From an uncultured Patescibacteria group bacterium (GTDB taxonomy: Bacteria > Patescibacteriota > Minisyncoccia > Phycocordibacterales > UBA918): 64,000 nucleotides of DNA. The stretch lies in contig CAKUWT010000001.1 of the NCBI GenBank assembly GCA_934699595.1, positions 353,033 through 417,032 on the forward strand, written 5' to 3'. A program made the position numbers and the translations under genes. Of this stretch, positions 51,816-52,072 are shown piece by piece; the stretch's first letter is position 1; each line of letters opens with the position of its first letter. The notes beneath the pieces are model-generated. The model did not search any database and was not told where the DNA came from. It saw only the letters and a program-made list of their open reading frames with translations.

Positions 51816-51886
51816 TCGCGGGGCCCGGAATCGAACCGGGGTCTGGAGGTTATGAGCCTCCCGAGGTACCTCTCCTCCACCCCGCT
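51816..51886 (-). tRNA. initiator tRNA-fMet (anticodon CAT), unpaired 1:72 (A1/G72)
   Basis: AGCGGGGTGGAGGAGAGGTACCTCGGGAGGCTCATAACCTCCAGACCCCGGTTCGATTCCGGGCCCCGCGA closely parallels E. coli tRNA-fMet (CGCGGGGTGGAGC...CTCATAA...CCGGCCCCCGCAACCA), including the 1:72 mismatch. Confidence 0.8.
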
Positions 51887-52072
51887 ATAATTTATTAACT
51901 TTGTTTCTTAAAATAACTACTGCTATCTCGGGAGGCTCATGAGACTTTCCTGCTCGGTACCGTCTCCTCCACCCCGCTATAATTTATTAACTTTGTTTCT
52001 TAAAATAACTACTGCTATCTCGGGAGGCTCATGAGACTTTCCTGCTCGGTACCGTCTCCTCCACCCCGCTAT
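51871..52072. repeat. 2.2 copies of a 92-bp perfect tandem direct repeat beginning inside the 5' end of tRNA-fMet
   Basis: Unit tctcctccaccccgctataatttattaactttgtttcttaaaataactactgctatctcgggaggctcatgagactttcctgctcggtaccg starts at 51871, 51963 and 52055 (partial). Each unit has the first 19 nt of the tRNA, an AT-rich promoter-like stretch (tagtta..N16..taataa) and an inverted anticodon-arm-like piece. Confidence 0.8.

Follow-up and report, generated by a model that had tools for sequence, protein, structure and literature searches.

A tandem array of tRNA-derived units in front of the initiator tRNA gene of a Patescibacteria group bacterium and its interpretation as decaying pseudogenes

In the genome of an uncultured Patescibacteria group bacterium the gene for the initiator tRNA is directly preceded by two identical 92-nt units built from parts of that same tRNA. 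The array is real and goes beyond what chance would produce. Having analysed a stretch of 64,000 nucleotides around it (hereafter the window), we think it on balance probable that the units are tandem pseudogenes, copies of the initiator tRNA gene that have no function and are decaying, and that they lie between the promoter and the intact gene and vary in copy number. This interpretation is based on the identity of the head-to-tail units, which neither ARAGORN nor Rfam calls as tRNAs; on a nearly identical assembly with one unit, the end point of a further contig and a close relative without any unit; on homologous, collinear units in other lineages, whose 5' parts match the tRNA of their own species; on a lone promoter-like site upstream of the array in three lineages, with no terminator-like site before the tRNA; on the lack of covariation in seven units and of any matching Rfam family; and on the presence in the window of a gene encoding RecA.

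Anatomy of the array and its surroundings

Read along the minus strand, the locus consists of a sigma-70-like site, unit 1, unit 2, the tRNA and a hairpin (Table 1), the last of which is probably a bidirectional intrinsic terminator. Tandem Repeats Finder reported a period of 92 with 2.3 copies at 51865-52077 (98% matches, score 412), and a separate repeat search returned two 92-nt copies at 100% identity plus 23 nt of a third at 96%. The 16-nt start of the tRNA occurs three times and a 19-nt unit-specific string twice, while about zero occurrences are expected in shuffled sequences. An earlier note on this DNA, made from the sequence alone, had described perfect 92-bp tandem units, and two full units plus a partial third are indeed what is found. 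Its statement that each unit begins with 19 contiguous nucleotides of the tRNA needs to be amended: each unit begins with tRNA nt 1-16, followed by a one-nucleotide insertion (an extra C) and then by GGTACC (52048-52070 in unit 1). After this come GAGCAGGAAAGT, then CTCATGAGCCTCCCGAG, and finally an AT-rich tail of 40 nt, the last seven nucleotides of which are AAATTAT. A similar heptamer stands ahead of unit 1. The repeated block spans positions -7 to +22 of the tRNA, with about 63-70 nt between the repeats. A 54-aa ORF overlapping unit 1 (51977-52141) was set aside as a reading-frame artefact of the repeat.

Table 1. Features of the initiator tRNA locus (positions are counted from the first letter of the window)
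Feature	Position	Strand	Remarks
Sigma-70-like promoter candidate	52089..52117	-	TGGACA-N17-TATATT, TG-extended -10; 10/12 match
Outer repeat edge, AAATGAT	52071..52077	-	7 nt ahead of unit 1; resembles unit end AAATTAT
Unit 1, 92-nt pseudo-tRNA copy	51979..52070	-	Tandem Repeats Finder, repeat search, alignment to relatives
Unit 1 segment complementary to tRNA nt ~20-36	52016..52032	-	17 nt, one mismatch
Unit 2	51887..51978	-	100% identical to unit 1; missing in 99.97%-identical assembly L001
Unit 2 segment complementary to tRNA nt ~20-36	51924..51940	-	17 nt, one mismatch
Intact initiator-type tRNA-Met(CAT)	51816..51886	-	71 nt, A1 x G72 mismatch, A11:U24, without encoded CCA
Perfect 18-bp palindromic hairpin	51776..51811	.	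A and T runs on flanks; 4 nt after tRNA

The tRNA gene itself is of the initiator type. ARAGORN called a tRNA-Met(CAT) at 51815-51886 on the minus strand, and cmscan gave an Rfam tRNA match of 57.2 bits at 51816-51886 in which pair 1:72 (A1 x G72) is marked as non-canonical; the anticodon is CAU (cat in the ARAGORN output), the mismatch at 1:72 is A1 x G72 in the window and A1 x A72 in relatives, and the D stem GAGG/CCUC provides A11:U24. The anticodon stem GGAGG/CCUCC, which is common to every relative, contains G30:C40 and G31:C39 but A29:U41, that is, two of the three canonical initiator G:C pairs. Initiator tRNAs with two G:C pairs are known elsewhere. In the other CAT tRNA nearby, position 1:72 is fully paired. 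The unpaired 1:72 position by which the earlier note had recognised an initiator tRNA is therefore confirmed by the Rfam alignment, although its description has to be corrected as to the strand, the gene being on the minus strand.

All the neighbouring genes are on the minus strand as well, in the order ligA, gatC, gatA, a gene for a 227-aa membrane protein, the array with its tRNA, an NTP-transferase gene and a second tRNA-Met(CAT). The homologues of the membrane protein bear Patescibacteria, Parcubacteria, Paceibacteria and Kaiserbacteria names. The rest of the window is made up of housekeeping genes, including those for RecA, MetRS, SHMT, RNR and ClpP, and Rfam recognised four tRNAs and nothing else in the window. 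A 27-nt copy of the 3' end of the neighbouring tRNA-Met lies 190 nt downstream of that gene, a classic att-like layout.

Homologous units in relatives and the complementarity to the tRNA

Using the membrane protein, we gathered 80 syntenic Parcubacteria loci, a set that is unbiased as to the presence of units. Homologous units were found in at least eight other Parcubacteria lineages. The unit family is present in L123 (three units), L191 (two), L199, L169, L179 and L194; units in L197 and L141/L142 are visibly decayed, their 5' part included, which is the behaviour of pseudogenes; and other forms of upstream 5' fragment occur in L137, L200 and L196. The number of units per genome thus ranges from one to three among the window and its relatives, and the flanking protein is as little as 42-55% identical across the unit-bearing lineages. 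About 80% of the related lineages have no units. One of these, L122, whose membrane protein is 86% identical, carries the same promoter and the identical tRNA without any unit, and its segment in front of the tRNA is homologous to the tail of the window unit. In L123 (membrane protein 55% identical) the gene order is the same, a promoter stands at the same position and there are three units of 99-100 nt; in the tRNA-fMet of this locus, a group I intron follows U36 and interrupts the gene (Rfam Intron_gpI, full-length match, 47.3 bits, E = 1e-10).

Alignment of seven lineages with the tRNA revealed that the units run in the sense of the tRNA and follow its order: nt 1-22, then GAG, a purine-rich insert of 8-15 nt, GNCTCATAACCTC(C) and an AGAC-like stretch. 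The GAG corresponds to the tRNA sequence GGTACC-TCGG-GAGGC minus TCGG, and GNCTCATAACCTC(C) repeats the anticodon loop and the 3' strand of the anticodon stem in direct orientation. A remnant of the 3' acceptor strand is left as CCCGCT in L191 and as CCGC in L123 and L194, and the T arm is absent. The non-tRNA junction CCGAGC is kept across lineages; the tails differ between them and are not conserved. The 5' part of the units matches the tRNA of its own species (G9 in the window, A9 in most others, GGGTTGG in L169), which points to concerted evolution. The units are accordingly collinear with their parent tRNA, have lost essential parts of it and receive no tRNA call from ARAGORN or Rfam. The alignment supports the earlier note in deriving the units from the tRNA, but not in describing them as scrambled pieces, since in the relatives they run in tRNA order as collinear pseudo-copies. 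Their length may be explained if they are decayed full-length tRNA copies with a short spacer (72 - 17 + ~10 + ~27 = roughly 92 nt). As to the specificity of 5' duplicates for the initiator tRNA, the counts in the unbiased Parcubacteria set were 4/55 versus 0/43, a difference that is not significant (Fisher p = 0.13).

The collinearity of the units also bears on a segment that had been taken for an inverted copy of the D-stem and anticodon-arm region. Positions 51852-51868 of the tRNA do form inverted arms with 51924-51940 and 52016-52032 (17 nt, 94%, with a perfect core of 15 nt), so the complementarity is real. The complementary segment of the window units is ATGAGCCTCCCGAG(A)TA, and the perfect 15-nt complement covers tRNA nt 22-36 both in the window and in L123. 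In the relatives, however, the same segment is the direct, tRNA-order sequence CTCATAACCTCC, so that this alignment identifies the "inverted anticodon arm" as the loop and 3' stem strand of the anticodon arm, copied directly, and the inversion itself does not stand. The lineage of the window and L123 is set apart from the others by the changes AA>GAG and AGAC>CGAG, and L194 (CTCATAACCTCCCCGAGG) has an intermediate form between the segment of the relatives and the complement seen in the window and L123. The copied 3' strand of the anticodon stem (CCTCC) is an inherent complement of the 5' strand, and AA>GAG together with AGAC>CGAG may then have lengthened the match to 15 nt, as in quasi-palindrome extension; the complementarity to tRNA nt 22-36 would in that case be a secondary product. 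Most relatives have no more of a complement to the tRNA than the natural 5-nt stem strand. An inversion or template switch pivoting on GGTACC was rejected on the strength of the direct copy CTCATAACCTCC in relatives, and it is unneeded, since the homologous units are collinear with the tRNA and a self-complementary stem with a few substitutions is sufficient.

A link of the units to the group I intron was also considered and rejected. The intron is present in 14 loci, 13 of which are without units; units without the intron occur in at least seven loci and neither element in most loci, L123 being the only one with both, and the similarity between units and intron was not convincing. The complementarity of the units stops at U36, the intron insertion site in the relatives, an overlap that we treat as a coincidence which may arise from the palindrome CTCATGAG.

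Copy number, transcription and competing explanations

The following scheme may account for these observations, the order of the mutational events in it being inferred. In an ancestor, the tRNA would have been duplicated in tandem together with a short spacer, leaving an upstream copy, which lost the T arm, most of the 3' acceptor strand and the TCGG at the junction of the D stem and anticodon stem, and gained an insertion of 8-15 nt. Concerted evolution between the repeats would keep the 5' end of the unit identical to the live gene, and the perfect 92-nt repeat would grow and shrink by slipped-strand mispairing or unequal RecA-mediated recombination, giving one, two or three units. The array would be co-transcribed from the lone upstream promoter as a 5' leader of roughly 195 nt, which RNase P would cut off exactly where the tRNA itself begins (+1); the units would be unable to mature into tRNAs.

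Variation in copy number is indicated by assemblies of the same strain. L001, an ENA contig assembled with MEGAHIT, is 99.97% identical over 6.7 kb and holds one unit versus two in the window; identical head-to-tail units together with such a difference between near-identical assemblies are what slippage or unequal crossover would leave. The Logan contig L125 stops at nt +28 of a unit, and its last 31-mer begins at the G at -3, the base that separates ATGAT in front of unit 1 from ATTAT in the unit tail. With k = 31, which we take to be the value used for the Logan assembly graph, the de Bruijn graph would not branch at this point with fewer than two units, so the contig end fits a second unit, whose presence we infer from it. 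The repeat thus exists, and the differing copy numbers reflect either polymorphism or sensitivity to the assembler. A comparison of copy number had been proposed in the earlier note, which took the duplication to be very recent and named slippage as one possible cause; the single unit in L001 agrees with a very recent origin of the second copy, and changes in copy number are likely to be driven by slippage or unequal recombination. The explanation of the second unit as a mis-assembled expansion of a one-unit locus, for which the MEGAHIT assembly speaks, is highly improbable in our view: the independent Logan contig ends exactly where two units would make the graph branch, relatives from unrelated samples have two or three units, and the core feature would still be there in the one-unit form.

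The scan for sigma-70 sites required at least 4/6 matches per hexamer and 9/12 overall. Its candidate in the window immediately follows the stop codon of the membrane-protein gene upstream and stands 18 nt ahead of unit 1, and sites at the same position, likewise with 10/12 matches, are found in L123 (TGGACA-17-TATACT) and L191 (TAGACA-16-TACAAT). No site inside any unit of the window, L123, L191 or L199 passed the scan, and no terminator-like site was seen between the promoter candidate and the tRNA. Since the only strong promoter-like site in the window, L123 and L191 is upstream of the array, the units are most simply regarded as a 5' leader, and probably are one, rather than tandem promoters. 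The earlier note had proposed tandem promoters, with tagtta-N16-taataa in each unit. In this alternative the AT-rich tail of every unit would hold a promoter, and copy number would tune the output of initiator tRNA. The 40-nt AT-rich tail does stop right at the +1 of the tRNA, and the tail in L123 contains a perfect TATAAT 9 nt before +1. The proposed promoter nevertheless fails the scan, its TAATAA being without the key T at position 6, while the 10/12 site stands ahead of the first unit; the tails are not conserved between lineages, and comparable units of Alphaproteobacteria lie within rrn operons, between the 5S rRNA and tRNA-fMet, where a promoter is unneeded. We regard this alternative as quite improbable.

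The main rival of the pseudogene reading, next to which the other alternatives are lesser ones, is a functional 5' leader in which the pseudo-tRNA units would be selected parts of the pre-tRNA. The 15-nt complement might pair with tRNA nt 22-36 and gate folding or RNase P processing, or the released leader might be a stable small RNA, like the rtT RNA from the E. coli tyrT transcript. The unit architecture is kept over deep divergence and, CCGAGC included, outlasts the expectation for unconstrained DNA, unless gene conversion refreshes it. The complement is perfect over 15 nt in the window and L123, and the directed extension from CTCATAA-CCTCC-AGAC to a 15/15 complement of the tRNA would take several changes, all in one direction. 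For the full precursor, the prediction is a fold much more stable than those of shuffled sequences (z = -6.5), in which the leader pairs with the body of the tRNA. In other phyla, the hairpins with compensatory changes in the analogous units of the FCB type and of Alphaproteobacteria suggest selection at least there, and in E. coli the annotation of the tyrV repeats is that of an sRNA, rttR. The stability of the precursor fold, however, is a consequence of the complementarity and no evidence of a function, and the folds of single units are modest (z about -2). RNAalifold applied to seven Parcubacteria units gave -2.0 kcal/mol and no compensatory pair, that is, neither covariation nor a conserved structure, and Rfam had no match in the units at E<=1. 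Furthermore, about four fifths of the related lineages, the closely related L122 among them, do without units, the copy number differs between assemblies of the same strain (whether by polymorphism or by assembler), the units in L197 and L141/142 are decaying at their 5' ends as well, and the extended complement is missing from most relatives. Selection on the leader therefore seems to us rather unlikely.

The possibility that the array is the scar or remnant of a mobile element targeting the initiator tRNA, be it an att duplication or a homing-nuclease cassette with a partial tRNA whose gene has since been lost, appears improbable. Direct repeats (-7 to +22) surround about 63 nt of other sequence beside a tRNA gene, the 27-nt 3'-end copy 190 nt downstream of the neighbouring tRNA-Met is att-like, and a mobile group I intron occupies the same gene in relatives. 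In other phyla, GIY-YIG genes are located inside or at most 300 nt downstream of tRNA-fMet arrays in eight loci among the matches listed, and the short units of L045 resemble deletion derivatives of a GIY-YIG-bearing unit; SegB, a GIY-YIG enzyme of a phage, is reported to drive the segmental amplification of a tRNA segment (PMC13096335). Against this, Pfam recognised only housekeeping families, and no integrase or recombinase, among the 20 window ORFs of 190-475 aa, tblastn revealed no GIY-YIG homologue in the window or in 84 Parcubacteria loci (L122-L205), and a search of viral contigs for the 19-nt unit core found no exact copy. What lies between the repeats derives from the tRNA and keeps its order. 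It is usually the 3' part of a tRNA that integrases duplicate. The att-site scars of the earlier note, which had suggested a search for a cognate integrase, are thus disfavoured by the absence of such a gene among the 20 mid-size ORFs, by the repetition of the 5' end of the tRNA and by the origin of the intervening DNA.

Known systems and comparable arrays in other phyla

The tyrT/tyrV loci of E. coli present a mirror image of the array in the window. In the K-12 tyrV locus, 3.1 copies of a 178-bp unit annotated as rttR/tpr follow tyrV, each of them carrying ATCCTTCCCCCACCACCA, the 3' end of tRNA-Tyr (its last ~19 nt), and the tyrT/tyrV repeats are co-transcribed with the tRNA. In both systems, tandem units with a terminal fragment of the tRNA adjoin its gene, and their copy number is set by unequal recombination. 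The E. coli units, however, bear 3' fragments and lie downstream, are 95% identical, contain the small ORF tpr and bear the sRNA annotation rttR, whereas those of the window bear 5' fragments and lie upstream in the leader, are perfect and are shorter. The window array may hence be a new variant of tyrT-type tRNA-linked repeats, and our literature search found no description of such initiator-tRNA units.

The partial tRNA copies of attL/attR sites are similar in that direct tRNA repeats flank non-gene DNA beside an intact tRNA; in the window, the 5' end is the part repeated, the ~63-70 nt between are tRNA-derived, and no integrase was found among the 20 ORFs. Tandem initiator tRNA genes (E. 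coli metZWV; TT/TTT loci) share the head-to-tail duplication and the short spacers, but in the window the last copy alone is intact and the upstream copies are without the T arm and the 3' acceptor strand. A group I intron in tRNA-fMet is known from cyanobacteria; the relatives have it after U36, while the tRNA of the window is intron-free. The SegB system (PMC13096335) resembles the initiator-tRNA arrays in the tandem amplification of a tRNA-containing segment and in the occurrence of GIY-YIG genes in arrays of other phyla, in contrast to the window, where there is no GIY-YIG or other nuclease gene near the array and the amplified unit is a dead copy.

Scanning one genome per species for GCGGGGTGGAG-N60-90-GCGGGGTGGAG yielded at least 120 loci; as the scan was conditioned on the 5' 11-mer, it is uninformative on specificity for the initiator tRNA. 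Among the matches listed, 68 of 120 loci have an intact initiator tRNA immediately preceded by units that start with the 5' end of tRNA-fMet, 78 units in all. The pattern was fT in 59 loci and ffT in five, with up to five units, and plain tandem genes accounted for only eight loci among these matches. The phyla and groups represented among the matches listed were Bacteroidota, Ignavibacteria, Chlorobiota, Zixibacteria, Marinimicrobia, Gemmatimonadota and Verrucomicrobiota, as well as many Alphaproteobacteria, Bdellovibrionales, Saccharibacteria, Gracilibacteria and some Firmicutes/Actinomycetota. FCB-type units (Bacteroidota-related phyla) have a UCCC..GGGA hairpin in place of the D loop; 23 such hairpins, 22 of them distinct, have stems of 4-9 bp with compensatory changes at stem layers 3-6. 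The alphaproteobacterial units sit between 5S rRNA and tRNA-fMet. MAFFT with RNAalifold misaligned the variable hairpins of these units and recovered the invariant 5' hairpin only, and single-sequence folds were used instead, in which the Sphingomonad-type units form three hairpins with a highly variable middle stem. Rfam gave no match at the gathering score in 15 loci from other phyla. The GIY-YIG genes of the eight loci mentioned above are stand-alone genes of 77 aa (Pfam E = 5e-18), and in L089 three GIY-YIG copies alternate with pseudo-tRNA pieces.

It is possible, though on the whole doubtful, that the window units are the Patescibacterial form of a widespread and apparently undescribed class of pseudo-tRNA repeats linked to the initiator tRNA, which would be either a selfish, nuclease-driven cassette that targets the initiator tRNA gene by homing and multiplies around it or a selected pre-tRNA leader module, and not the result of independent neutral duplications. 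Such a class would comprise units of 70-100 nt that open with the precise 5' end of tRNA-fMet and adjoin the live gene on its upstream side in many phyla; their hairpins would covary in a lineage-specific way, and stand-alone GIY-YIG genes would be interleaved with them in several lineages.

With the pseudogene reading, the odd repeat of the window is accounted for: it would be an array of decaying pseudo-tRNAs, variable in copy number, within the leader of the only initiator tRNA gene. The cross-phylum pattern, in which one to five truncated 5' copies of tRNA-fMet stand upstream of the live gene, may matter more than the result for the window itself. Should this pattern prove specific to the initiator tRNA, it would represent either an unrecognised selfish element targeting an essential and universally conserved gene or a leader module that controls the maturation of the tRNA.

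Units upstream of the initiator tRNA across phyla

In the scan of genome contigs, one genome per species, 68 of the 120 listed loci (L002-L121, drawn from many phyla) carried units that immediately precede an intact initiator tRNA gene. The set is a lower bound, with at least 120 loci in the contig scan and more in existence. There are from one to five units per locus, each 70-100 nt in length. At its start each unit reproduces the 5' end of tRNA-fMet exactly, but the 3' part of the tRNA is absent. No Rfam match was obtained for these cross-phylum units, and our literature search found no description of them.

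In the units of the FCB-group loci (Bacteroidota-related phyla) listed in the table, a hairpin of the form UCCC..GGGA occupies the place of the tRNA D loop. Its stems are 4-9 bp long and vary in sequence (22 of the 23 hairpins are distinct). In several layers of the stem both partners of a pair have changed in a compensatory way, which suggests that the hairpin is a selected structure. In the FCB-type unit located upstream of the tRNA at L090, CCCCGCG is kept near the unit 3' end. This segment could close an acceptor-like stem with the 5' CGCGGGG, so that some units may still adopt a tRNA-like fold.

The alphaproteobacterial units (L014, L019, L027, L042, L053, L092, L102, L119 and others) are positioned between the 5S rRNA and tRNA-fMet, with three predicted hairpins per unit: the first (GCGGG/CCCGC) sequesters the 5' acceptor strand, the second (9-13 bp) is highly variable in sequence and the third is GGGCUG/CAGCCC. 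Another upstream form was found in two Parcubacteria lineages (L137 and L200), in which the repeat is limited to tRNA nt 1-8 (AGCGGGGT). Behind it come a GAGAAA..TTTCGC hairpin and the motif GATCCTGTAAGGATGAG, common to both lineages, and the units are about 130-166 nt long.

Features of initiator-tRNA and second tRNA-Met loci
Feature	Locus	Position
Group I intron in initiator tRNA	L123	4080-4347
Group I intron, other loci	L126, L134, L138, L144, L145, L150, L154, L155, L157, L161-L164	
UCCC..GGGA hairpin, FCB group	L004, L013, L016, L025, L026, L031, L046, L047, L069, L070, L074, L086, L089, L090, L095, L098, L099, L111, L112, L115, L117	
Alternative upstream form	L137	3160-3290
Alternative upstream form	L200	3285-3450
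Second tRNA-Met(CAT), minus strand	window	50915-50991
Perfect 27-nt repeat of its 3' end	window	50724-50750 and 50914-50940
GIY-YIG gene	L045	2708-2938
GIY-YIG genes, three copies	L089	5750-6621
GIY-YIG gene	L111	4780-5012
GIY-YIG genes, other loci	L112, L017, L043, L021, L069	

tRNA-Met genes of the window and its relatives

At 14 Parcubacteria loci the initiator tRNA is split after U36 by an ORF-less group I intron about 270 nt long (junctions GGCTCAT/AGG...CAG/AACCTCC), and ARAGORN missed the genes split in this way. The L123 intron scores 47.3 bits with Rfam Intron_gpI, slightly below the gathering score of 50.

The initiator tRNA gene of the window, which ends at 51816, does not encode CCA (GCGA/CAAG). 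CCA is encoded in L122 (~910; GCGACCAG), the relative with 86% identity in the flanking protein. Within the membrane-protein ORF of the window, 14 of the 16 nt of TTATGTGCCTCCCAAG (52234-52249) agree with the anticodon arm of the tRNA read in antisense, a likeness that is probably due to chance.

The 3' end of the second tRNA-Met of the window is repeated 190 nt downstream. The repeated stretch comprises the T arm's 3' half, the acceptor strand and CCAT, and the interval separating the two copies contains no gene. The arrangement is like that of att sites or of repeats of the tyrT type, and it recurs at L123 (157 nt spacing), L142, L172 and L195.

GIY-YIG genes at the arrays

Stand-alone genes for a GIY-YIG nuclease domain (~77 aa, Pfam E = 5e-18) are associated with initiator-tRNA arrays, lying within the array or at most 300 nt downstream, on the same strand. 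At L089 they alternate with pseudo-tRNA-fMet pieces, and at L045 the gene starts inside the T loop of a pseudo-unit. The GIY-YIG gene together with the initiator-tRNA array may constitute a nuclease-driven cassette.
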